Positions 2,552-63,933 of a stretch of 64,000 nt of DNA are shown piece by piece. Position 1 is the stretch's first letter, and each line of letters starts with the position of its first letter. This DNA is from an uncultured Clostridia bacterium (lineage in GTDB: Bacteria; Bacillota; Clostridia; TANB77; CAG-508), in assembly GCA_963558405.1 (NCBI GenBank), contig CAUWGC010000002.1, positions 40,852 through 104,851 of the forward strand, written 5' to 3'. Both the position numbers and the translations under genes were made by a program. The notes below the pieces were generated by a model. The model saw only the letters and a list, made by a program, of their open reading frames with translations. It searched no databases and was not told the origin of the DNA.

Positions 2552-3274
2552 CTATGATTTCTTATATTTTTTATATCCCCAGTAAGTTCCTCCACCTAGT
2601 GCTCCTAATGTTATAACTCCTACTAAAGGATTTGAATCTTCTTCGTTATCTGTTATTGTATTATTATTAATATTATTTTTATTTATTGTAGATATCTTTA
2701 CACCATTTTCTATCTTTTGCTCTTCTTTTATATTTATTTTTATTGTATTTGTTTTCCCATTAGAACTACTTGCAGTTATCTCAACTGTTCCGGCTTTTTT
2801 TGCTACAATTTCTCCACTAGAACTAATCGTAGCAATATTATCATCGCTTGACTTCCATGTAATATTCTTCTCTGTTACATTTTCTGGTATTATTGTAGCT
2901 GTTAACTTTTGACTTTCTCCTTCTTTCATACTCGTTATATTTTCATTTATTTTAATATCTGTTGCTACTATTGTAGCTTGTACTGTAGATGTCTCTTTAG
3001 TATTTGATGTACTATTTTGAATTGATGATGAACTAGAAGAATATGGACAAACCCCATTTGTATGTAAATGGGCTGGATATCCCCCACAATGGTAATGATA
3101 ACTTCCTAGTCCACTTTTATTTTTGTTATCTTTATGTCCACCACTTGAATCTGTTCTTCCTGAATGACCATATGCATTAACTCCTATTGATATTATGCTT
3201 AAAGCAATTACTAAAATTGATAATTTTTTTACCTTGTTTTTCCTCATATATATCCCCCTTAAATAGTATATCAA
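2552..3274 (-). CDS. secreted/membrane-anchored protein with YHYH motif and Big_2 (bacterial Ig-like) domain
   Basis: It has an N-terminal signal/TM segment, then YHYHCGGYPAHLH, then a Big_2-like segment (ITWKSSDDNIATISSSGEIVAKKAGTVEITASS), and a C-terminal hydrophobic anchor. Confidence 0.5.
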   Translation of the reverse strand: MIYYLRGIYMRKNKVKKLSILVIALSIISIGVNAYGHSGRTDSSGGHKDNKNKSGLGSYHYHCGGYPAHLHTNGVCPYSSSSSSIQNSTSNTKETSTVQATIVATDIKINENITSMKEGESQKLTATIIPENVTEKNITWKSSDDNIATISSSGEIVAKKAGTVEITASSSNGKTNTIKINIKEEQKIENGVKISTINKNNINNNTITDNEEDSNPLVGVITLGALGGGTYWGYKKYKKS

Positions 3275-3571
3275 CTTTTTATTGCAAAATTTGTCGAACG
3301 TTGCAAGTAAAATATAAATTTCGACAAACTATAACATCTTATTTTTCTATAAGTCTATATTTGCTATCCTATTATAAAATTTTTTTACTATAAGTCAGTT
3401 TTCTACATTATATGACATCCAGTTTGTATTATAATTATGTTGACTTTTTATTGTTTTATTTCTAAGATTTGTTATCATACTTAACTTCAATAAATTATTT
3501 TTAGTCCATAGAAAATATTAATGATTATATTTGTTAGATTCTTCATTAATATTTTCTTTTTCTATTTGGTT

Positions 3572-3588
3572 GACCTTCGGGTTATGAG
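3572..3588. repeat. attL core (17-bp direct repeat)
   Basis: It is identical to 45152-45168. Confidence 0.6.
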
Positions 3589-3647
3589 GAGATAAAGTCA
3601 TAATCTCAAAGCCCTTTATTCTCATAGGTTTGGAGATTTATTTTTTG

Positions 3648-3672
3648 TTTATACCCTTTATTTACCCTTTAT
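3648..3672. repeat. arm-type integrase-binding repeat (TTTATACCCTTTATTTACCCTTTAT)
   Basis: It is identical to 44998-45022 and consists of tandem ACCCTTTAT units. A third CCCTTTAT lies at 3613-3620. Confidence 0.5.
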
Positions 3673-3699: not shown

Positions 3700-4893
3700 T
3701 TAATCCATTTGTAAATCATCTAAATAAGCTTCTAATCTGTTCATTTGGGATAACTTAACTTGTCCTAATATATGGACATATATGTCTGCTGTTGTACTAT
3801 AACTAGCATGACCTAAAATTTCTTGCAAAACTCTTAAATCTATTCCTGCCTCAATAGATCTTGTTGCAAAAGTATGTCTTAATTCGTGAATTCCTACTTT
3901 TCTAAAATTATGGCTTTCACAAATTTGCTGACAATGTTTTCTTAAATATTCTGAATTTATTGGATTATTACACTTTGTTTTAAATATAAAATCATTTTCG
4001 TTAAATCCATCTCCTAATTCAGCAAGTGTTTCACTTTCATTTATTTTTTCTTCTTTATATTCTTTTAAAATTCTTATTACTTTATCTAGCATAGGAACAA
4101 CTCTATAACTGTTTTCTGTTTTTACATCTGTTACTTTTCGTTCTCTTTTTATCTTATTTAAATCATCATCATAAGTTGTAACTTTTTGAACTCCCCTTCT
4201 TACATAAAGAGCTTTATTTTCAAAATCAATATCTTTCCAAGTAAGTCCACTTAGTTCTCCTGCTCTTAATCCTGTATTTACTAAAACAATATATGCTGTT
4301 CCCATTGTGTGTTCTTTCATAAATCCTTCAAATATCTTTTGTTCCTCTTTAGTCATTATTTTTAGTTCTTTTCTTCTCATAGAAGGTAACTTTAATTTCT
4401 TTGTAGGATTCATTGTCATTAATCTACACATCATTGCATCATCAAAGCACATTTTTAATATGCTATTATAATGTCTTAATGATTTAGGCGATTTTCCTTC
4501 TTTTTGTAATTGACTAATAAATTTTTGTAAATGATATAACTCTATTTTTTGCAACTGCATATTACCTAAATACTCAATTATTTTCTTAGTTTTTTCAACA
4601 TACCCTTGATATGTTCTAGGCGAAATATAAGGCTTTTTATAAATTTTCATCCACTCTTTAATCCATTCTTCGAGTGTAACATTATTATTTTCTATAAAAT
4701 AATTATCATCCTTTTGCCTTCTCATTTCTTGCATTTTTTCTACTACAACTCTTTGAGTTTTCCCATATACAGAAACTTGTTTATTTTTACCATTTACACA
4801 AACTGTTACCCTCCCTTCATAACTATTTCCTCTTTTTCTTATTGTGCCTTCGCCTTTAATTCTTCTTGAAACTTTATCTTTACTCTTACTCAT
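3700..4893 (-). CDS. int: tyrosine site-specific integrase
   Basis: The C-terminal catalytic region reads HELRHTFATRSIEAGIDLRVLQEILGHASYSTTADIYVH. There is an N-terminal SAM-like domain. It sits next to the att core. Confidence 0.9.
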   Translation of the reverse strand: MSKSKDKVSRRIKGEGTIRKRGNSYEGRVTVCVNGKNKQVSVYGKTQRVVVEKMQEMRRQKDDNYFIENNNVTLEEWIKEWMKIYKKPYISPRTYQGYVEKTKKIIEYLGNMQLQKIELYHLQKFISQLQKEGKSPKSLRHYNSILKMCFDDAMMCRLMTMNPTKKLKLPSMRRKELKIMTKEEQKIFEGFMKEHTMGTAYIVLVNTGLRAGELSGLTWKDIDFENKALYVRRGVQKVTTYDDDLNKIKRERKVTDVKTENSYRVVPMLDKVIRILKEYKEEKINESETLAELGDGFNENDFIFKTKCNNPINSEYLRKHCQQICESHNFRKVGIHELRHTFATRSIEAGIDLRVLQEILGHASYSTTADIYVHILGQVKLSQMNRLEAYLDDLQMD

Positions 4894-4986: not shown

Positions 4987-5172
4987 CTAAACAATAATTC
5001 TTCCTGAATTTTTATCAAACCATTCAATCATCTTAGGCTTGTTTATTACGATTCTTCTTTCAAATTTTATGCAAGGAAAATCTTTTAATTTAGTCAGTTC
5101 TGCCATAAGCTGTTTACTTATTCCTAATATTTCAGAAGCCTCTTGTATATTTATTCCTATTTTTTCATCCAT
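4987..5172 (-). CDS. xis: excisionase / AlpA-like HTH DNA-binding protein
   Basis: It is a 61-aa protein with an HTH (IQEASEILGISKQLMAELTK). It lies immediately upstream of int, in Xis position. Confidence 0.55.
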   Translation of the reverse strand: MDEKIGINIQEASEILGISKQLMAELTKLKDFPCIKFERRIVINKPKMIEWFDKNSGRIIV

Positions 5173-5384
5173 ATAGCAGATCCTCCTTCTTTTAATATTT
5201 CTTCAGCTTTTTTAACTGCCTCTCTTGGAGAATATAATTTCATCACACATTCAATTTCATCATTTAATAATTTTACACTTAAATCATTTGGTGCTACTCC
5301 TAAAGTATTTAAAGCAATAACTGCATAAGCTCTAGCTTGTTTTACAGTAACAGTTTTTACATTATTTAATTTCATTTTTATCAA
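5157..5384 (-). CDS. hypothetical small protein
   Basis: This is a 75-aa ORF between the regulatory region and xis-int. I recognise no motif. Confidence 0.3.
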   Translation of the reverse strand: MIKMKLNNVKTVTVKQARAYAVIALNTLGVAPNDLSVKLLNDEIECVMKLYSPREAVKKAEEILKEGGSAIWMKK

Positions 5385-5718
5385 TTCCTTTCACTTATAA
5401 ATTTTTTAATTAGTTACAAGCGAATTTAGTATCATTCACATAGGAATTGCACCTCTCCGTTTCCACCGAGCGACTCCTCAACTAAATTAAGCCGAGTCGA
5501 AGTATCATTATCACACTAATATAGATCTTCGCCTACATAAACTTACCATCGTTTACTTTTTCCCTCGTTATAGTCGCTATTTACTTTAAATTAACCTTCG
5601 CCTTCTTGGAGCTACCTACATTAGTTAAAGTCTTGTAACTAATATATTCACTTGTCAATGTTCATAGCAAATCTCACTTGCTACTCACATTGGCGAAAAA
5701 AATTTTAAAATGTCCCGA

Positions 5719-5949
5719 TTATTTTAAAAATTTTTTAATTTCTTTTATTGCTTTAAATTTTTCAATATTGTCAAAGACTCTATCTTCAATATATTCCTTA
5801 CATTCTTGATTAAATTTACCTTTTATATATGATTCTTTATTTATCAAAGGCTCAAATAAAATAAGAATCTCAAATTTTGATTTTGTATCTCCATTTACAG
5901 CTTTTTCAATAACATTAAATAATTCTTTATTACTCATCTCAATTTTCAT
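5719..5949 (-). CDS. hypothetical small protein (possible sigma-factor partner/region-2-like)
   Basis: A 76-aa ORF that ends 3 bp from the upstream sigma-like gene, so translation looks coupled. Confidence 0.35.
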   Translation of the reverse strand: MKIEMSNKELFNVIEKAVNGDTKSKFEILILFEPLINKESYIKGKFNQECKEYIEDRVFDNIEKFKAIKEIKKFLK

Positions 5950-5951
5950 TT

Positions 5952-6410
5952 CTATTCTCCTAACATTTTCTTTATTTTAGATTTAATAATACTTTTTTTA
6001 TTTCTAATTGTCTTTTCCGTTAAATTCATTTTATTAGCAATTTCTTTACTGCTATATTCATCAATACTTAATGCTAATATTTTCTTTTCATCTTGTGTTA
6101 AATTATGAATTGCTAATTTTAATTTCTTATTTGTAGTAATATCTTCTAATTCTCTTATTTCTGATATTTTTAAATCTTCAAAAGCAAAAAAAGAGTCGCT
6201 ATCATACAATGACAACGACACATTTCTGTCCACAAAATCAGTAAAAGTAATTTCTTTTACTGCTCCACTATCAACCTTTCTTGCAAAATCAATCGCAGAA
6301 TGTTTTACTACTTTTTTTACATATACTTTAAATGCCCTTACAACATACTCAACTTCACTTTCTGAATATTCTCTAGCACTCATAAAGATTACCTCCGTTC
6401 TAGGACACAC
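5952..6410 (-). CDS. sigma-70 region-4-like HTH protein (ICE regulatory sigma-like factor)
   Basis: The C-terminus LTQDEKKILALSIDEYSSKEIANKMNLTEKTIRNKKSIIKSKIKKML is a sigma-70 r4-type HTH. The true ATG is probably at 6383, where a GGAGG RBS precedes it. Confidence 0.6.
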   Translation of the reverse strand: MCPRTEVIFMSAREYSESEVEYVVRAFKVYVKKVVKHSAIDFARKVDSGAVKEITFTDFVDRNVSLSLYDSDSFFAFEDLKISEIRELEDITTNKKLKLAIHNLTQDEKKILALSIDEYSSKEIANKMNLTEKTIRNKKSIIKSKIKKMLGE

Positions 6411-6673
6411 TAAAGCCCATACAACGGAGGCAATATAAAAACATTACCTGAAAATATTTATTTTATATTATAAGAATTTTCAAAATCCTGTATCTATTCA
6501 TAATAAAAATCTCCTTTTAAACAAATAATCCATAATTGCCAAAGCATATAAAAATTCCATCCTTAGTCTTTTCTTAACACATCAACCTTAGTGTAAAATT
6601 ACATTACCTCGTATTTATGGACTATTTGTCCTGCTTAATATAATAGAACTTTTTAGCAAAATTTCATCAAAAT

Positions 6674-6721
6674 TGCTGAAAGGAACTGAAAAAGTGCTGA
6701 AAAATGCTGAAAAATGCTGAA
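6674..6721 (+). repeat. five direct repeats of (T)GCTGAAA with a 10-11 bp period
   Basis: Units lie at 6674, 6685 (degenerate), 6695, 6705 and 6715. The spacing matches a helical-turn period. They are upstream of the promoter of the Spo0A-like gene. Confidence 0.5.
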
Positions 6722-6726
6722 ATCCT

Positions 6727-6753
6727 TGTCGAATTATAGGAAGTTGTGTCGAT
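6727..6753 (+). promoter_or_regulatory. 0A-box-like sites: TGTCGAA (6727-6733) and TGTCGAT (6747-6753)
   Basis: The first matches the Spo0A box consensus TGNCGAA exactly. Both lie just upstream of the -35 of the Spo0A-like gene. Confidence 0.4.
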
Positions 6754-6757
6754 TAGA

Positions 6758-6786
6758 TTGAAACTTAACATAAAAAATGATATAAT
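6758..6786 (+). promoter_or_regulatory. sigma-A-type promoter: TTGAAA, 17-bp spacer, TATAAT
   Basis: The hexamers read directly from the sequence. The promoter is about 70 bp upstream of the 6855 start codon. Confidence 0.5.
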
Positions 6787-6854
6787 AAAACCCAGTTAGA
6801 TAAGCTAATTGAGAGCTTTTATACACTAATTGTAATTTTAATGGAGGGAATTAA

Positions 6855-7562
6855 ATGATTGAAGTTATGATTGCAGATGATAATACAGCACTTTGTGAAA
6901 GCTGTTTCAAATTTCTAACAAAAGATAAAGAAATAAAAATTGTTTCGTATGCCTTAAATGGCGAAGAAACACTAGAAAAATACTTTGAATTTAAACCTGA
7001 TGTATTATTATTAGACTTAGATATGCCTATAATAAGTGGCATTGATGTTATTAACACATTACATAGGTTTTCTGAAGAAAGATCAAAATGTAATATAATT
7101 GTTGTTTCAGGAAGTTATGAAAAATTAAATCAATTATATAATACAGCACAAGTTTTTAGAGTAATACCTAAACCTGCTAATTTTGATTACATATTAGAAA
7201 CAATAAAAGAAGTACCTTTAAAAAGCCAAGAAATAAACCAAAAAGAATTAAAAGAAATTCTAATAGAATTAAGATTAAATGTTTTCTCTACTAGAGTAAA
7301 ACACCTAATATCAGCAATAAATGTAGCATATAAACACCCTTATTTATTGAACAATATAAAAGACTTATATTCAGAAGTTGCAAAAGAATATAATATAAGT
7401 CCGAAAACAGTTAAATGGAGTATTAGAACTTCAATAGACACTTTAAATCGTTCTCTGTCTATTGATAATCTTTGCTCCGTTTTTTCTTTAAAATTTAGAC
7501 CTGATACAGTAACACCAAAATATTTTATAACTTTACTTGTAGAATATTTTGAGCAAGAATAA
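6855..7562 (+). CDS. Spo0A-family response regulator (REC domain + Spo0A_C DNA-binding domain)
   Basis: The REC domain has ADDN, the phospho-acceptor in LLLDLDMP and the lysine in IPKP. The C-terminal domain aligns with B. subtilis Spo0A_C: ILIEL..AI, LLNNIKDLYSEVAKEYNISPKTVKWSIRTSI, and PKYFITLL against PTNSEFIAMI. Confidence 0.75.
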   Translation: MIEVMIADDNTALCESCFKFLTKDKEIKIVSYALNGEETLEKYFEFKPDVLLLDLDMPIISGIDVINTLHRFSEERSKCNIIVVSGSYEKLNQLYNTAQVFRVIPKPANFDYILETIKEVPLKSQEINQKELKEILIELRLNVFSTRVKHLISAINVAYKHPYLLNNIKDLYSEVAKEYNISPKTVKWSIRTSIDTLNRSLSIDNLCSVFSLKFRPDTVTPKYFITLLVEYFEQE

Positions 7563-7717
7563 AGAGCAGAAGTTAATTTTTCTGCTCTACCTTTTTTTAA
7601 TACGGATTTTCTAATCAAATAAACTTTTTCAGCATTCTCAATTATTTACAAGTTTTATAGCTACTTTATGAATTTAAAATCAAATAAAGTTTAACATCAT
7701 TACAGTATATAATATTT

Positions 7718-8218
7718 TTAATTACAAAAATCTTCTTTACAATACTCTGTTCCAAATTTACTTGGAGTAAAATACTTAACTTCCCCATTATCATTAACAG
7801 AAAAAATATGCAAGCATAGAACTTCTGCTATTTCTTTAGGTATTCTTCTTAGAGCTACTTGAGCAGATTCCCAATATAATCCAAGTCCATATTTATAAGC
7901 ATGATTGATTCCTGAGATTTTTCCATCATCTTTTGAAACCGAATATCTTTTTACATCCATTCTTGTTATTATTTGTCCTAAGGCATTAAGCCATCCTTCT
8001 TTATTAACCGATTTAGCCGATTTTGAATATGATTTACCTTTACATTCAATAAAAAAATATTCACTATTTCTTTTACCACCAACTAATTTAATATCAACTC
8101 CGTGTTTATGCAAATCGCTTTTTTCTACTTTTTCTTCGTGCCAATTACCATTTGGTTTATTTATCATAAATTTAATAATTTGCTCTACAACAAATTCTTC
8201 GGTAATTTTCTCATTCAT
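7718..8218 (-). CDS. hypothetical protein, possible PD-(D/E)xK nuclease fold
   Basis: This 166-aa ORF has a D...(E)xK-like arrangement (HGVDIKLV ... EYFFIECKGKS). It is the last gene of the mod-res operon. Confidence 0.3.
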   Translation of the reverse strand: MNEKITEEFVVEQIIKFMINKPNGNWHEEKVEKSDLHKHGVDIKLVGGKRNSEYFFIECKGKSYSKSAKSVNKEGWLNALGQIITRMDVKRYSVSKDDGKISGINHAYKYGLGLYWESAQVALRRIPKEIAEVLCLHIFSVNDNGEVKYFTPSKFGTEYCKEDFCN

Positions 8219-8246
8219 ATTTTATCTCCTCAACAAATTTTAAATC

Positions 8247-9623
8247 TTATGAATTTTTGTAATCATCCATATATTTTATATCATTTTCTTTGCAAAATTG
8301 AATTGCATCCTTATAAATCTCATCCTCATTATCCTTATTATCGTATAATTTTCTCGGAACAACTATAGACTTTTCAATTATTGCTTTATATTCTTTTTTA
8401 TTAAATAAATTTGCATCATATTCAGGTAACATATAAAAATCTGTTGCTACTTTATTTATAAACATACTCATCTTCTTAGAATAGTACATTGTAATATATA
8501 ATTCTTGTGTATTTTTCATAGGTAAAAGTTTCATAAGTCTTTTAATTGAAAGTACATCAATATTCATATCCAAAATTATTTTATGAAGTTTGTTTATTTC
8601 TTTTTCTTTTTTTACAAGTTCTTCAGCAGAAACATAATCATCCTCATCGTATTCATCAATATCATCATAATATATATCATATTTGCTTAAATCAGTTGTC
8701 TCAGTAATTTTTTCAATAACTCTTTTTGTTTTCTCTACTGGATATGGTGCATTTTCTCTTGTATAATATTGAGCATCTACTACAGTTGCAATTACTATAT
8801 TATCAGCCATATAAACTACAACTTTATCCCCTATTTTAATGTTTGTATCTTCTGACATATAGCAATATGTTTTTCCGTTATTATATTCATCATATTCAAC
8901 AGTTAAGTAATAATATTGTTCCTGTAAAGAATCAGGTATTTCATAATCTTTTCCTTCAATATCACTTTTAGCATCTTTCTTTTTATTATCTTCTTTTTCA
9001 GGGAATATCTGAATTATATAATTATATATCTCTTTTATTTCTTCCTTGTCAAAACATAAATTATAATAATTGGGAGATAATGCCCCATCCTCAAATAAAT
9101 TGATTCTCAAATCTACTAAATTATTAGTATATGTATAAAACTCTAAATCAGGCTCAATAAAACTTATACTTTCATCTTTTTTTAATTTATCATTTATGAA
9201 TTTTTGTAATAAATTTCTAAGTTCCACTACTTCAAATTCTAATAAAAGTTCGCCTTTGTTATTATAATTAAAATATTTATTTGAAATAGAGATTATAACA
9301 TCACACCACCTATCATAAGGATCGTGTTCAAAATCTTTTTTTCTAATAATCTTTAAATAAAAATCTGTATAATCATCAATTTTTAATCTTAAAAAATTAT
9401 TTTGTTCTTTTTTTGCTATTAAAATTTCCAATCGTGGTAAATATTCTTCTTTATTGTATTTATATATAGTTTCAGGAGAAGGGAGCATATATACATCTCT
9501 TTCTTCTAGCTTTCCTTCTTCGTACATTTTAATAGCTTGTATAAGTTCATCTCTTTCTTTATATAATTTTTGTAATGACCATTTCTTCTTTTCATCTATA
9601 TAAACTTCAGGACTTATCATCAT
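8247..9623 (-). CDS. hypothetical protein (acidic, 458 aa), co-operonic with Type III R-M
   Basis: It is a long, uninterrupted ORF lying 21 bp after the upstream gene. I recognise no motif. Confidence 0.45.
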   Translation of the reverse strand: MMISPEVYIDEKKKWSLQKLYKERDELIQAIKMYEEGKLEERDVYMLPSPETIYKYNKEEYLPRLEILIAKKEQNNFLRLKIDDYTDFYLKIIRKKDFEHDPYDRWCDVIISISNKYFNYNNKGELLLEFEVVELRNLLQKFINDKLKKDESISFIEPDLEFYTYTNNLVDLRINLFEDGALSPNYYNLCFDKEEIKEIYNYIIQIFPEKEDNKKKDAKSDIEGKDYEIPDSLQEQYYYLTVEYDEYNNGKTYCYMSEDTNIKIGDKVVVYMADNIVIATVVDAQYYTRENAPYPVEKTKRVIEKITETTDLSKYDIYYDDIDEYDEDDYVSAEELVKKEKEINKLHKIILDMNIDVLSIKRLMKLLPMKNTQELYITMYYSKKMSMFINKVATDFYMLPEYDANLFNKKEYKAIIEKSIVVPRKLYDNKDNEDEIYKDAIQFCKENDIKYMDDYKNS

Positions 9624-9644
9624 AATAACACCTTCTTTATTATC

Positions 9645-10637
9645 TTATACTCCACCTAATAAATTTAATGCAGTTTGTCCTAGAAGGTTTACCACTTCTG
9701 CATAAAACCATCCGTGTTTATCAAAATGATCTGTTAATTTTTGAAAGAAACCTTTTCTTTTATCAATATGTTTAGAATCCTTCATATTTTCTATTATTTC
9801 TTTAGTTTCCTCTAATAATTCCTGTAATACTTTTTTATCATCTTCATTATCGCATTTTTCTTCAATCTCTTGTTCTATTCTTGAAACTGAATTATCTATA
9901 TTTAAATTAGAATTAACAACATCTCCCATAACGAAATTACTATTAGTAGCAGTTAGATTGTTAATATTATATGTATTTGAACTTAATTTACTTAGTCTTT
10001 CGTTATGTTTTTTTTCTCTTTCAAAATATGTTCTTCCTGCTTGTGTTAATATTGCATTATAAACAGTATCACTTGCCCAACTTACTCTTATTAAACCATT
10101 TGAATCTAAAGTTCCTATTATCCCTCTAATAATATCTTTTTCATCATCATTAACTTTTTTCTCTAGGAACTCCGTTATATTACCATTTGAATTTTCTACT
10201 TTTATTATCTCATTTAATAGATTTTTTTCACTATCTGTTAATTCATCAAACAATTCTTCTCTACACCCTTTCTTTTCAAAATATTGCAAAGCTTCAGGAG
10301 TTAATGTTACAAACCACCCTCCATCAATAAAATTATTATAATTTGAGATATATCCATATAATTTTAAATCTTCCATTGTTTCTTTAATACAAAATCTCAT
10401 ATAATTTGGAAACTCCGACATATTTCCATTAACAGAATAATCTTTTTCTTCATTATACTTATTTAAAAAAACATTTAACATTATTTCTGCATTTTTACTT
10501 AAAATATTCATAGATAATCTCTCCTTATTTTGTTGTATCAATATCTCTTTTTGTTTTTTTCTGACAATTTCATCAACTTTTTTATTTAATTCTTTTTCTA
10601 TTTTTTTAGTATCAATTTTTATTTGAAATTTTGCCAT
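9645..10637 (-). CDS. hypothetical protein (330 aa), co-operonic with Type III R-M
   Basis: It starts 15 bp after the res stop. I recognise no motif. Confidence 0.45.
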   Translation of the reverse strand: MAKFQIKIDTKKIEKELNKKVDEIVRKKQKEILIQQNKERLSMNILSKNAEIMLNVFLNKYNEEKDYSVNGNMSEFPNYMRFCIKETMEDLKLYGYISNYNNFIDGGWFVTLTPEALQYFEKKGCREELFDELTDSEKNLLNEIIKVENSNGNITEFLEKKVNDDEKDIIRGIIGTLDSNGLIRVSWASDTVYNAILTQAGRTYFEREKKHNERLSKLSSNTYNINNLTATNSNFVMGDVVNSNLNIDNSVSRIEQEIEEKCDNEDDKKVLQELLEETKEIIENMKDSKHIDKRKGFFQKLTDHFDKHGWFYAEVVNLLGQTALNLLGGV

Positions 10638-14653: not shown

Positions 14654-15403
14654 CTATATGTTATATTCTTCAGATATTTTATTAAATTTTTCTAATAATT
14701 TATTATATTCTTCTCTTGAAACTCCTGTATCTTCCAAGGGTTTACAAAGTTTTAAATCTTCTTCATCCATTTCATCTTCATTTCTATAATATCTGATTAA
14801 ATCTCCTTCAACAATATCAAATTCATAGTTAGTATAAATTTTATCTTTAAGTTCTATATCTAATTTATTTAATAGAATAATATCAGCATCATTTAAGTAT
14901 TTCATTAAGTCTATAAATTCTTTGTTATGGTATTTTTCGCTCCATTCTTCATAGTTAAACCTATACATATATACTTCTTTTCTTACTATATCATAGTCAT
15001 TATCAATATTAAAAAGTTCCTTAATACCTTTTTTTAAAATCTTTCCATTTTCTTCTGATAACCTATTACTTACCACAGCAAGATTTATTATTAAACATAT
15101 ATGATGATATGTTTCACAATCAAATATATCATCTATAATATAATTGACTATTTCAAAACTAAATTCCTTTTCTAGTTTATCCTTTAATATTTTAAATTCT
15201 TTTCTTCTTTTCTCTATATATTTGATTTTACCTTTAGCACTTTCTACTTCATTTGATGAATAACCTTCAAAAAAGTTTTCCATACTAACTATAACTCCTT
15301 TTATATTTATTAATATATCTGTGCTGTATTTATTATTATAGCAAATTTTATTTGTCGAAATCTGTCGAAACTTGTGCATTTTCATTTTTGTAAATACAGG
15401 CAT
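14654..15403 (-). CDS. hypothetical protein
   Basis: The ORF is probably shorter than listed. An AAGGAG RBS precedes the ATG at about 15292 (MENFFEGY...), which would give about 210 aa. Confidence 0.4.
   Translation of the reverse strand: MPVFTKMKMHKFRQISTNKICYNNKYSTDILINIKGVIVSMENFFEGYSSNEVESAKGKIKYIEKRRKEFKILKDKLEKEFSFEIVNYIIDDIFDCETYHHICLIINLAVVSNRLSEENGKILKKGIKELFNIDNDYDIVRKEVYMYRFNYEEWSEKYHNKEFIDLMKYLNDADIILLNKLDIELKDKIYTNYEFDIVEGDLIRYYRNEDEMDEEDLKLCKPLEDTGVSREEYNKLLEKFNKISEEYNI
15352..15369 (+). promoter_or_regulatory. tandem 0A-box-like repeats TGTCGAAATCTGTCGAA
   Basis: Two exact TGTCGAA copies lie 11 bp apart. They are about 20 bp upstream of a TTGTAA...TATAAC promoter for the XRE gene at 15458. 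Confidence 0.4.
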
Positions 15404-15457: not shown

Positions 15458-15718
15458 ATGAATAATACAAGATCAAAAGAGGGCGAATTAAATGTAGTCG
15501 GCTCTAAGATAAAATATTATAGAGAATTAAATAACTTATCTTATCAAAAATTATCAGATAAACTAATGTTATTAGGAATAGATATTCATAAACAAGCAAT
15601 ATATAATATTGAAATAGGTATTAGAACTGTTGTAGATTATGAACTTTGTGGATTTGCAAAATGTTTCAACATAACTGTAAATGATTTAACTGATGATTAT
15701 TTTAAAAACTTAAAATAG
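15458..15718 (+). CDS. XRE-family HTH transcriptional regulator
   Basis: It has an HTH: LSYQKLSDKLMLLGIDIHKQAIYNIEIGIR. Confidence 0.6.
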   Translation: MNNTRSKEGELNVVGSKIKYYRELNNLSYQKLSDKLMLLGIDIHKQAIYNIEIGIRTVVDYELCGFAKCFNITVNDLTDDYFKNLK

Positions 15719-44997: not shown

Positions 44998-45022
44998 TTA
45001 TACCCTTTATTTACCCTTTATG
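44998..45022. repeat. arm-type repeat at right end of ICE (identical to 3648-3672)
   Basis: It reads TTTATACCCTTTATTTACCCTTTAT. TTTTAATGCT direct repeats lie at 45040-45070. Confidence 0.5.
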
Positions 45023-45123: not shown

Positions 45124-45199
45124 TGGTTGCGGGGGATAGACTCGAACTATCGACCTTCGGGTTATGAGCCCGACGAGCTGCCAACTGCTCCACCCCGCG
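45124..45199 (-). tRNA. initiator tRNA-fMet (anticodon CAT)
   Basis: The reverse complement CGCGGGGTGGAGCAGTTGGCAGCTCGTCGGGCTCATAACCCGAAGGTCGATAGTTCGAGTCTATCCCCCGCAACCA is nearly identical to E. coli tRNA-fMet. It has the C1:A72 mismatch, the GGG/CCC anticodon stem, and an encoded CCA. Confidence 0.9.
45152..45168. repeat. attR core inside the tRNA anticodon loop, 3' anticodon stem and variable region
   Basis: It is identical to 3572-3588. Confidence 0.6.
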
Positions 45200-61730: not shown

Positions 61731-62411
61731 CTATTTCTTATATCCAAACCTCTCCATTCTCTCTTCTTCTCTAGTAGATAATTCTTTTAGCCATTCAGCT
61801 AAACCATTACTATCATTATTTCGTAAAAATTCGAAATACTTTACCCTATCCTCTTTTGCTATTACAACAGGTGGCAAGTCATTTTTTAGTAATTCATAAT
61901 TTATAAGCAATCTACCTGTTCTTCCATTTCCATCTTCAAAAGGATGTATTTTTTCAAAATCAATATGATATTTTGCAATTTTAGTAAATATATCTTGTTC
62001 ATCATGATTATAGTTATGTATATAATACATTATTAAATTTGGTACTTTTTCAGGCTCTGGTGGAATATGTTCACTACCTTTAATAAATATTTGTGCAGTT
62101 CTGTAACCTTCAGTATCTTTAATATCTCTATTTATCGTTTCATTTAATTTTTTAATAAATCTCTCATCAAATTCTTCATTATTTTGTAAATTTTTAAAAA
62201 CTAATTCTAATGCTTTTTTATGATTTATAGCCTCATATATTTCCCTTGGCTCTTTTCCTTCAATTTTAAAGCTATTGTCGTTGTATAGAATAGCATATGT
62301 TTCAGCATAAGTAAGTGTACTTCCTTCAATAGCATTTGAATGATAAGTACTTCTTGTAATTAAATCTTCTAAATAACTTTTATTATTTAAAATAAATTCT
62401 AAAATTGACAT
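61731..62411 (-). CDS. fic: Fic-family AMPylase-type protein (class II, canonical motifs)
   Basis: The inhibitory motif SNAIEGS and the active site HPFEDGNGRTGR are both present. Confidence 0.8.
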   Translation of the reverse strand: MSILEFILNNKSYLEDLITRSTYHSNAIEGSTLTYAETYAILYNDNSFKIEGKEPREIYEAINHKKALELVFKNLQNNEEFDERFIKKLNETINRDIKDTEGYRTAQIFIKGSEHIPPEPEKVPNLIMYYIHNYNHDEQDIFTKIAKYHIDFEKIHPFEDGNGRTGRLLINYELLKNDLPPVVIAKEDRVKYFEFLRNNDSNGLAEWLKELSTREEERMERFGYKK

Positions 62412-62601
62412 GAATTTCTCCTATAATATAAAATAAAAGAACTGTCTTAAGCAACAGTCCTTTTTTATGGTCGAGGCGACTACCTCGAAAAAACACATAT
62501 CTATTGCAATTACTGCATTTTCTTAATCAAACATAATTCTTGAAATTTGACCTTGAAATTTTCTAGTAATTTTTTATCTATTCAATTAACTTCAATTTTG
62601 C

Positions 62602-63933
62602 TTACATCTCACTTATTCCATCTGTTACATAATTTATATATTTTTCTTTCTCTTTTCTTTGATAAAAGTTAAAAACTTTTCCATATTCATTAATGGTTGT
62701 CTGAATATCATGATGTCCCATTAATGTTTGAAGTACAGGTAGAGAAATTCCTGCTTCGATACATCTTGTTGCAAAAGTATGTCTTAACCTGTGTGAACTA
62801 AATTCTTTCCAATAACTTAGTCCAATTTCTTTTGCAACTCTTTTTAAATAACTATTTACACTACTTTCTAAAATAAGTGAGCCGTTTTCTTGACAGAATA
62901 ATAATTTTTCTTTGTTATTTTCATTAGCTTCTGCATTTGCAATAGCCTCTATAACATTATTTTTGAAAACATCATTAATCTGAACAAGTCTAGCACCGTC
63001 TTTTGTTTGAGATAAGGCAGAATCATGTATGTATGGTTTATGATTTTCATCATGTGTTAGTATTTTACTAACAGAAATGGTATTACTATGAATATCAACA
63101 TCTGAAGTATTTAATGCTAATGTTTCTCCTAACCTCATTCCAGTGTACAATTCAATCAAGACAAGATTTCTATATGGATGAGTATCGGTAATTAGATATT
63201 GTTTAAATCTTTTTTCTTCATCAAATGTCATTGGATTAACTTGTTTTGTAGCAATTTTACTTTGAGTTTTCTCAATTTTATTAAATCCTCTAAAAAAGTT
63301 CTTTTTAATATAATCATTTTCTTCAGCATAATCATAGATTCTTACTAACATTCCATAATCTTTTTTTATTATAGAATTTGACTTATCTCTTTCATCTTCC
63401 AAGAAACTTTCAATACTTTCTTTTTTTACTTTCTCAATAGGAATATTGGAAAACTCATATGAATTTATTCTTTTCAATGTACTCATATTTGTTCTATATG
63501 CATTTGTTCCAATTTTGCCTCTGGATTTTTTTATTTCTTCCATTTGGCAACCTAAGCTATATATTGTTACCATTGTTTTTTGAACAATATTTTTAGGTAA
63601 TCCATTTCTTTTTACATCATCTTTAAATTGATAAAGCTTATATAGTGCCTCGTCTTCAGTCTTTCCAGTAAAAGTTTTTTTAATTTCTTTTCCTGTTTGT
63701 GGACTTCTACCTAAATTTAATATTGCTTTTGAACATGAAGAAATATAGAAAATATCACATTCTGTAGCATTTGCACAATTTTTACATATAGAGCATTTTG
63801 AAAGTTTTTTTCTATTGCTACAAATTGACCTATCTTTACAATTCTTACAAGTTGGACAGATAGGTAAAGAATTTACTTTCTTTTTTGTTTTTATTGTGTA
63901 TGTTCCAACTGTAATTCCTTTTGAGTGTTGCAT
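62602..63933 (-). CDS. tyrosine integrase with N-terminal Cys-rich (double CxxC) domain
   Basis: The C-terminus reads RLRHTFATRCIEAGISLPVLQTLMGHHDIQTTINEYGKV. The N-terminus is CPTCKNCKDRSICSNRKKLSKCSICKNCANATEC. Confidence 0.85.
   Translation of the reverse strand: MQHSKGITVGTYTIKTKKKVNSLPICPTCKNCKDRSICSNRKKLSKCSICKNCANATECDIFYISSCSKAILNLGRSPQTGKEIKKTFTGKTEDEALYKLYQFKDDVKRNGLPKNIVQKTMVTIYSLGCQMEEIKKSRGKIGTNAYRTNMSTLKRINSYEFSNIPIEKVKKESIESFLEDERDKSNSIIKKDYGMLVRIYDYAEENDYIKKNFFRGFNKIEKTQSKIATKQVNPMTFDEEKRFKQYLITDTHPYRNLVLIELYTGMRLGETLALNTSDVDIHSNTISVSKILTHDENHKPYIHDSALSQTKDGARLVQINDVFKNNVIEAIANAEANENNKEKLLFCQENGSLILESSVNSYLKRVAKEIGLSYWKEFSSHRLRHTFATRCIEAGISLPVLQTLMGHHDIQTTINEYGKVFNFYQRKEKEKYINYVTDGISEM

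Follow-up and report, generated by a model that had tools for sequence, protein, structure and literature searches.

Here we describe a stretch of 64,000 nucleotides from an uncultured Clostridia bacterium (contig CAUWGC010000002.1, positions 40,852 to 104,851; referred to below as the window), which carries a Tn916-like integrative and conjugative element (ICE), and in particular one gene of this element that encodes a response regulator of 235 amino acids (aa). Judged by its sequence and by a model of its effector domain, this regulator is a diverged, whole-length and phosphorylatable paralog of Spo0A, and not Spo0A itself. Its gene belongs to the conserved core of the regulation and recombination module in an ICE family of gut Clostridia. 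This gene is divergent from the operon that contains xis and int, and the approximately 95 bp between the -35 elements of the two back-to-back promoters are filled by 7 to 8 helically phased 7-bp boxes of the type recognized by Spo0A (0A boxes). The regulator probably switches the excision and transfer genes of the element.

A preliminary description of this DNA, made from its letters only, had seen a Spo0A-family response regulator with an intact receiver on a conjugative element, and this was borne out. The receiver covers approximately aa 1-120 and is followed by a short linker and an effector domain of the Spo0A_C type (approximately aa 125-235), in which aa 183-195 (PKTVKWSIRTSID) correspond to the recognition helix. 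The receiver residues D8/D9, D54, S85 and K106 are all present, and are kept in 21 aligned members of the family. In a Pfam search, which the preliminary description had proposed, both domains were found above their cutoffs on the single polypeptide (Response_reg, 2e-15, 57.3 bits; Spo0A_C, PF08769, 1.1e-10, 41.8 bits versus a cutoff of 25). The top NCBIfam model was that of Spo0A (TIGR02875), spanning residues 2-219 and thus both domains, with a score of 77.1 bits, below the equivalog cutoff of 200. The best sequence matches of the receiver in the PDB were Spo0A receivers, and the C-terminal half matched 1LQ1 and 1FC3. As a fold search with the whole model was swamped by receiver domains, the C-terminal domain was modelled on its own. 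The AlphaFold (AF2) model of aa 125-235 reached a predicted local distance difference test (pLDDT) value of 96 and fitted only the Spo0A effector structures 1FC3 and 1LQ1 (template modelling score 0.75-0.85, root mean square deviation 2.2-2.6 Å); beyond these two, the fold search with this domain gave nothing better than E ~ 1.

The conjugative nature of the element is confirmed by its integrase, relaxase, coupling protein (T4CP), VirB4 ATPase and flanking repeats, to which TrbL/VirB6 can be added. The regulator gene lies inside this element, between the xis/int module and the cargo, and thus not in the core genome, where the sporulation gene spo0A has its place. Its full receiver likewise sets it apart from the truncated, effector-only Spo0A homologs of phages. 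No histidine kinase was detected in the window (no HisKA or HATPase_c match among the scanned open reading frames (ORFs) of at least 100 aa), nor was a second receiver, and the regulator is therefore an orphan.

In several distant members of the family (P0154, P0164, P0168, P0170, P0183, P0187 and P0191) the acidic pocket is gone, ADDN being replaced by ANSN, ANEN or SDSN, and distant subfamilies sometimes also lose the context of the phospho-aspartate (alignment A4). Part of the family is probably made up of pseudo-receivers.

At least 280 homologs of approximately 235 aa were found. Among 1.84 billion representative proteins, 24 matched at E ≤ 1e-30 and 397 at E ≤ 1e-10, mostly with lengths of 230-245 aa, and contigs with the exact regulator protein were found in 150 blocks of the collection. 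A near-identity DNA search of the PLSDB plasmids and INPHARED phages with positions 5500-9700 found nothing, and in protein mode the plasmid and phage search returned only distant response regulators or a true plasmid-borne spo0A. In the genome and metagenome loci from gut Clostridia, the regulator gene is always divergent from an operon made up of an orf7-like gene, an HTH_16 gene, one or more small ORFs and a recombinase gene. This gene order is common to loci L001-L009, L011, L015-L018, L020 and L038-L047, with a recombinase of the tyrosine type in L001-L009 and L038-L041 and of the serine type in L042-L047, L018 and L020. Because the divergent arrangement persists across loci and recombinase types, we consider the regulator a core regulatory gene. 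The preliminary description had proposed to look for the gene in related ICEs, and it was found there with the same module and with conserved boxes.

Some of these loci showed additional features. In L042-L047 (P0077-type), the serine recombinase lies beside short fragments of Peptidase_A25 (gpr spore protease) in several contigs, and a second gene pair 5 kb away encodes a sigma-70 region 2/region 4 factor and another regulator with receiver and Spo0A_C domains. In L055 (218-565), a stand-alone Spo0A_C gene of 115 aa is located next to a GH25/LysM lysin gene of phage-like type. Just downstream of the regulator gene, L020 (7145-7621) and L054 (1944-2426) encode a single-domain receiver of approximately 160 aa, which hints at a small phosphorelay or a phosphate sink. 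The 166-aa ORF at 7718-8218 of the window was considered as a degenerate counterpart of these receivers and was rejected, as it showed no similarity to them and no Pfam match.

The promoter predicted upstream of the regulator gene is the best consensus match of the region (11/12) and is located exactly where the preliminary description had placed it. It has an extended -10 element (TG at 6778-6779), and this element as well as the TTG of the -35 are invariant in nine aligned loci. Upstream of it lie two proximal boxes, also placed correctly before and conserved in related ICEs, one a perfect 0A box and the other, TGTCGAT, matching the 0A box at 6 of 7 positions (Table 1). Further upstream, the distal array had been described as five TGCTGAA(A) repeats at about 10-bp spacing. 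The array is real and conserved, with steps of 10, 11, 10 and 10 bp, but only four units are exact copies of TGCTGAAA (starting at 6674, 6695, 6705 and 6715), the unit at 6684 being degenerate (AACTGAA). The array starts 7 bp upstream of the -35 element of the predicted minus-strand promoter, whose TTTCAT element is also invariant in the nine aligned loci. The sequence TGCTGAAA occurs 9 times in the window versus 3.6 expected, and four of these occurrences fall within 48 bp. TGTCGAA occurs 10 times versus 1.9 expected, and three same-strand clusters of TG(TC|CT)[GA]AA at helical spacing were counted versus 0.08 in shuffled sequences. G2, C4 and G5 of the 0A box are present at 6727-6733 and 6747-6753, whereas the five distal units have a T at position 4. 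With its 7-bp boxes and 3-bp spacers, the row matches the geometry reported for 1LQ1, in which Spo0A is bound to DNA in tandem. Inspection by eye spoke against a sigma-H-type promoter between the boxes, since neither the spacing nor the -10 element was suitable.

Two conserved palindromes lie on either side of the row. One, GGAC-N5-GTCC (6619-6631), lies on the operon side just past the predicted -10 and is kept even in distant clades. The other, CCAGTTAG-N6-CTAATTGG (6792-6813), lies just past the -10 of the regulator promoter, at the 5' end of the regulator mRNA; its G-U wobbles are more in keeping with a stem-loop of the RNA than with an operator.

Box positions were compared in approximately 20 distinct loci, counting from the -35 of the regulator promoter, and their register was fixed throughout. 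The box at -31 is TGTCGAA in 16 of these loci, and the box at -11 is TGTCGAA or TGTCAAA in 14. The units at -43 and -53 read TGCTGAA or TGCTAAA, those at -63/64 and -73/74 are of mixed types, and an additional unit at -84 is found in the window locus only, its relatives having four distal units. In the nine aligned loci, in which regulator identity ranges from 42 to 100%, TTGTC-AA of the -31 box is invariant, and periodic chains of boxes exceeded those in shuffled sequences in 12 loci. The row of L057, a relative with 94% identity, reads TGTCGAA, TGCTGAA, TGTTGAA, TGCTGAA, TGTCGAA, a degenerate unit and TGTCGAT, and in L006 the first unit is TGTCGAA. TGCTGAA, TGTTGAA and TGTCGAA are thus swapped at like positions between near-identical elements. 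Because of this interchange, the distal repeats and the 0A boxes, which had been taken as separate things, are best read as a single class of sites, TG(C/T)(T/C)GAA, on a 10-bp frame that by analogy is the tandem Spo0A-binding geometry. A division of labour along the row is also conserved, with canonical boxes beside the -35 of the regulator gene and variants with T instead of C4 beside the other promoter.

Across clades the distal units vary with the recognition helix of the regulator, and the canonical boxes remain unchanged in most clades. Regulators with a KW(S/G)IR helix are accompanied by TGCTGAA or TGCTAAA, those with KSSIR by GATTAAA (GATTAAAAAA), those with KWRII by TAGCAAA, and those with QSRLR by GGTGT or GTTCG with T-tracts; loci of the VQW type are without an array and have TGTCA boxes only.

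The preliminary description had also stated that the effector domain aligns motif-for-motif with that of Spo0A. This holds for the domain and its fold, not for the recognition helix. In a gap-free alignment to 1LQ1, the regulator reads K-T-V-K-W-S-I-R-T-S-I-D where Spo0A reads S210-R-V-E213-R214-A-I-R217-H-A-I-E, with KTVKWSIRT versus SRVERAIRH as the core. Only V212, I216, R217, I220 and E221 (as D) are kept, while S210, R211, E213, R214 and H218 are replaced by K, T, K, W and T; in place of the invariant Spo0A helix SRVERAIRHAIE, which reads TGTCGAA, the aligned residues are KTVKWSIRTSID. Loss of the recognition residues had been named beforehand as an observation that would speak against a Spo0A-like function, and it applies in part, with five positions replaced in a domain whose Spo0A_C match is significant. 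Spo0A contacts G2, C4 and G5 of TGTCGAA through residues that are all conserved from Bacillus to C. difficile, and mutating C4 lowers its affinity approximately 10-fold (Rosenbusch et al., PMC3485338). TGCTGAA departs from TGTCGAA at C4, one of these three contact positions. As several of its recognition-helix residues are replaced, it is doubtful that the regulator binds canonical TGTCGAA.

A second set of residues has changed in the receiver. At the positions that map to the partner-specificity set of Spo0A (taken from PMC6136694), the regulator has NALSKFN and Spo0A has NELLEYD, so that three of three acidic positions are lost. The idea that the regulator simply ties into the kinases or phosphorelay of host Spo0A, put forward earlier, is argued against by these changes. 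The regulator thus appears to have diverged exactly at the residues expected to govern 0A-box reading and phosphodonor choice.

The mechanism that we prefer, with a probability of about 0.5, is that the phosphorylated regulator occupies the distal units and that host Spo0A~P, the regulator or both occupy the canonical boxes, which together would set autoregulation as well as excision and transfer. The regulator would receive phosphate on D54 from a kinase of the host or from a small phosphodonor, and effector domains of the Spo0A type would bind along the row in a head-to-tail manner, like Spo0A on tandem 0A boxes. On the distal TGCTGAA-type units, the phosphorylated regulator would sit beside the -35 of the excision/transfer operon promoter, and it is proposed as their reader because these sites co-vary with its helix. 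The readers of the canonical TGTCGAA/TGTCRAA boxes beside the -35 of the regulator gene may be host Spo0A~P, the regulator or both, host Spo0A being proposed because an invariant site fits an invariant reader. Occupancy would on the one hand autoregulate the regulator gene and on the other control transcription of the sigma-like/xis/int operon, with activation favoured in view of the weak -35 downstream of the sites. The sigma-like gene, the first of the operon, would be further gated by a hairpin that sequesters its Shine-Dalgarno (SD) sequence. Excision and transfer would in this way be coupled to a phosphorylation signal and probably also to the sporulation state of the host, a link that is plausible through the invariant canonical boxes, to which host Spo0A~P could bind.

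Several points weigh against this mechanism. All of its steps are inferred from sequence. The minus-strand promoter matches the consensus at only 9 of 12 positions, and another candidate (6496-6467) lies nearer to the operon. The regulator promoter is close enough to the consensus to do without an activator, so that the proximal boxes could equally repress. The apparent correlation between helix and distal unit covers about nine clades, and no array was detected by the periodic-chain scan in L011-L014, L018 and L020. Phased A-tracts by themselves could bend the DNA. Finally, E213, R214 and R217 are only the putative base-contacting residues of Spo0A. A model with a single protein, in which the row provides high- and low-affinity sites for either the regulator or host Spo0A, is an alternative.

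A stronger version of the preferred mechanism remains tentative. It states that these ICEs of gut Clostridia carry an orthogonal pair of Spo0A-like protein and box, in which the altered helix reads TGCTGAA-type boxes (other units in other clades) and host Spo0A~P reads TGTCGAA. The row would then act as a two-input gate on excision and transfer, combining a phosphorylation signal of the element with the commitment of the host to sporulation.

We consider it unlikely that host Spo0A~P alone serves the whole row, binding the perfect boxes with high and the TGCTGAA units with low affinity, so that the element reads the sporulation signal of its host and the regulator is a competitor, a phosphate sink or a protein with other targets. 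The divergence of the regulator's helix would fit such a role, as would the enrichment of TGTCGAA in the window, the boxes at -31 and -11 being the most conserved elements, and the finding that a perfect TGTCGAA is predictive of binding by the Spo0A DNA-binding domain (PMC3485338). However, the distal units follow the clade of the ICE regulator although the Spo0A helix is invariant, they lack the C4 whose mutation is so costly to Spo0A, and it would go unexplained why the regulator gene and the array are linked in a conserved manner.

Mobile elements are known to interfere with the development of their hosts. DevI of ICEBs1 inhibits Spo0A-dependent development (PMC8032392), homologs of spo0A that are truncated to the effector domain occur in human-gut phages (Schwartz et al. 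2023, PMC10294663), and an enrichment of PF08769 has been noted for gut mobile elements of Firmicutes (bioRxiv 10.1101/214213). The regulator might similarly be cargo that binds to 0A-box promoters of the host or titrates its sporulation kinases, thereby delaying or triggering sporulation, with the upstream boxes being autoregulatory only. This is improbable in view of the position of the gene, which lies in the regulatory module rather than in the cargo region and stays there despite differing cargo and recombinase types, and in view of a recognition helix and predicted partner-specificity residues that are unlike those of Spo0A.

Two further explanations of the distal array appear even less probable. 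The array might be mainly structural, its phased A-tracts stimulating one or both promoters through intrinsic DNA curvature or as an UP-like element, with no dedicated binder. Tracts of A4-A5 are indeed found in helical phase at 6669, 6689, 6700 and 6710, A- or T-tract-rich arrays occur in all clades, and curved upstream DNA stimulates Clostridium promoters, such as that of plc in C. perfringens. Yet the part of the unit that is not A-tract, TGCTG, is positionally conserved where the flanks have diverged, and it shares the 7-mer class of the 0A box, which curvature would not need. The array might lastly be read by another DNA-binding protein of the ICE (the sigma-like Orf7 homolog, the HTH_16 protein or Xis), whose genes adjoin it and co-vary with the element clade, but its units closely resemble the site of Spo0A-family proteins, the regulator is the only protein of the element with a helix-turn-helix of this type, and direct 10-bp tandem repeats suit head-to-tail binding of the Spo0A type.

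The regulator shares with Spo0A of B. subtilis and Clostridium (TIGR02875; 1QMP, 1FC3, 1LQ1) the architecture of receiver and Spo0A_C domain, the effector fold and the phospho-acceptor residues. R217, I216 and I220 are kept, as is part of the sigma-A-activating region (I229, D230, F236). The promoters of both genes carry upstream 0A-type boxes, and the candidate sites of the regulator are, like the sites of Spo0A, tandem 7-bp boxes on a 10-bp repeat. In contrast to Spo0A (approximately 267 aa), which is encoded in the core genome, the regulator has a short linker and is borne by an ICE beside the recombination module, and its preferred repeat would be TGCTGAA instead of TGTCGAA. With Tn916, in which orf9 is divergent from orf7-orf8-xis-int, the element shares an Orf7-like protein, an Orf8-like protein, an Xis of the HTH_17 type and a tyrosine integrase, here in a single operon, as well as a divergent regulator. 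However, the place of the Xre-type Orf9 repressor is taken by a Spo0A-like response regulator that is presumably phosphorylation-dependent, and an Xre-like gene is located elsewhere, at 15458-15718. In addition, the ICE has an SD-sequestering hairpin before the orf7-like gene and lacks the tet(M) attenuation leader, and some of its relatives use a serine recombinase.

The phage homologs and the PF08769 survey resemble the present case in that Spo0A effector homologs occur on mobile elements of gut Firmicutes. They are, however, effector-only and signal-independent and were reported without sites or context, whereas the regulator is full-length with an intact receiver, is a core ICE gene and has a candidate array of sites. 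ICEBs1, with RapI-PhrI/ImmR and DevI, similarly links ICE activation with host development through the Spo0A pathway, but does so with unrelated proteins and a different mechanism, ImmR being a phage-like repressor.

Spo0A homologs of mobile elements were previously known only from surveys. Our literature search, whose coverage did not extend to most subscription journals, found no description of a full-length Spo0A-like ICE regulator or of its site arrays. Spo0A_C is commonly regarded as a domain unique to Spo0A (PMC6136694), and spore formers are recognized by their spo0A gene, so that a large ICE family of full-length paralogs can mislead surveys of genomes and metagenomes. If the proposed mechanism is true, the family offers a natural example of a master developmental regulator that was duplicated onto a mobile element and re-specified, a directly testable connection of horizontal gene transfer with sporulation in gut Clostridia, and a compact switch that is controlled by phosphorylation and has defined operator arrays. 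For the DNA-recognition code of the Spo0A fold, the pairs of helix and repeat in the different clades also provide a data set.

Table 1. Features of the ICE and of its regulatory region (positions in the window)
Feature	Position	Strand	Remarks
ICE, probable extent	3574-45169		Tn916-like, approximately 41.6 kb
17-nt repeat GACCTTCGGGTTATGAG	3574-3590 and 45153-45169		probable ICE ends; right copy within tRNA-Met
Paired 11-nt TACCCTTTATT repeats	3652-3672 and 45001-45021		arm-site-like, just inside each end
Tyrosine integrase	3700-4893	-	Phage_int_SAM_3 and Phage_integrase
Excisionase-like protein (Xis)	4987-5172	-	HTH_17
Small ORF	5157-5375		72 aa
HTH_16 protein	5719-5949	-	Tn916 Orf8-like
Sigma-70 region-4-only protein	5952-6383	-	Tn916 Orf7-like; first gene of divergent operon
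SD-sequestering hairpin CCUCCGUU...AACGGAGG	6392-6430	-	before sigma-like gene (AUG 6383)
Divergent promoter	6640-6667	-	predicted, weak; ATGAAA, 16 nt, TATTAT; faces sigma-like/HTH_16/xis/int operon
Distal array	6674-6721	+	TGCTGAA 6674, AACTGAA 6684, TGCTGAA 6695/6705/6715; A-tract after each
Proximal boxes	6727-6753	+	TGTCGAA 6727-6733 (-31), degenerate TAGGAAG 6737-6743, TGTCGAT 6747-6753 (-11)
Regulator promoter	6758-6786	+	predicted sigma-A type; TTGAAA 6758-6763, 17 nt, TATAAT 6781-6786
Regulator gene	6855-7562	+	orphan Spo0A-like response regulator, 235 aa
Intrinsic-terminator-like hairpin	7563-7588	+	directly 3' of regulator stop codon

The SD-sequestering hairpin is conserved in 10 diverse loci, with compensatory changes at 7 of its 14 pairs, and the 266-nt leader to which it belongs (6640 to 6375, minus strand) is strongly folded (z = -5.1). 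Hairpin and leader suggest that the ICE activation operon is gated at the level of translation. A search against Rfam gave nothing credible within 5800-7800.

The left copy of the 17-nt repeat corresponds to the anticodon-arm region of tRNA-Met. The DNA to the left of position 3574 does not resemble a displaced 3' half of the tRNA, and may be the remnant of another element, with Fic and Big_2 genes. Just outside this inferred left end, an inverted pair of TTTGTCGAA boxes (3292-3298 and 3320-3326) lies upstream of the Big_2-domain gene (2552-3274). As cargo, the ICE carries a WapI-like gene and a type III restriction-modification system, and its other genes encode a SpaA-type adhesin, a sortase, an M23 peptidase, ParB, ArdA and RadC.

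Two further TGTCGAA boxes, 10 bp apart (15353 and 15363) and accompanied by a third, degenerate unit (15353-15369), adjoin a promoter-like site. Downstream of them lies the Xre-like gene (86 aa), one of very few plus-strand genes of the ICE. These boxes were considered as a second target and were not counted, because the closest ortholog, in L002 (93% identical), lacks them. A repeat of approximately 45 nt containing ATCCAAAACCCTTTT is present in five copies (at approximately 16141, 20415, 35838, 40951 and 41757), all between genes of the ICE and ahead of minus-strand operons, and may serve as promoters for the sigma-like factor that the element itself encodes. Finally, within 61731-63933 a second tyrosine integrase gene (443 aa) is located next to a Fic-domain gene, and 41 nt of the integrase gene are 93% identical to the ICE integrase gene (62747-62787 versus 3842-3882). 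This region is probably another integrated element.

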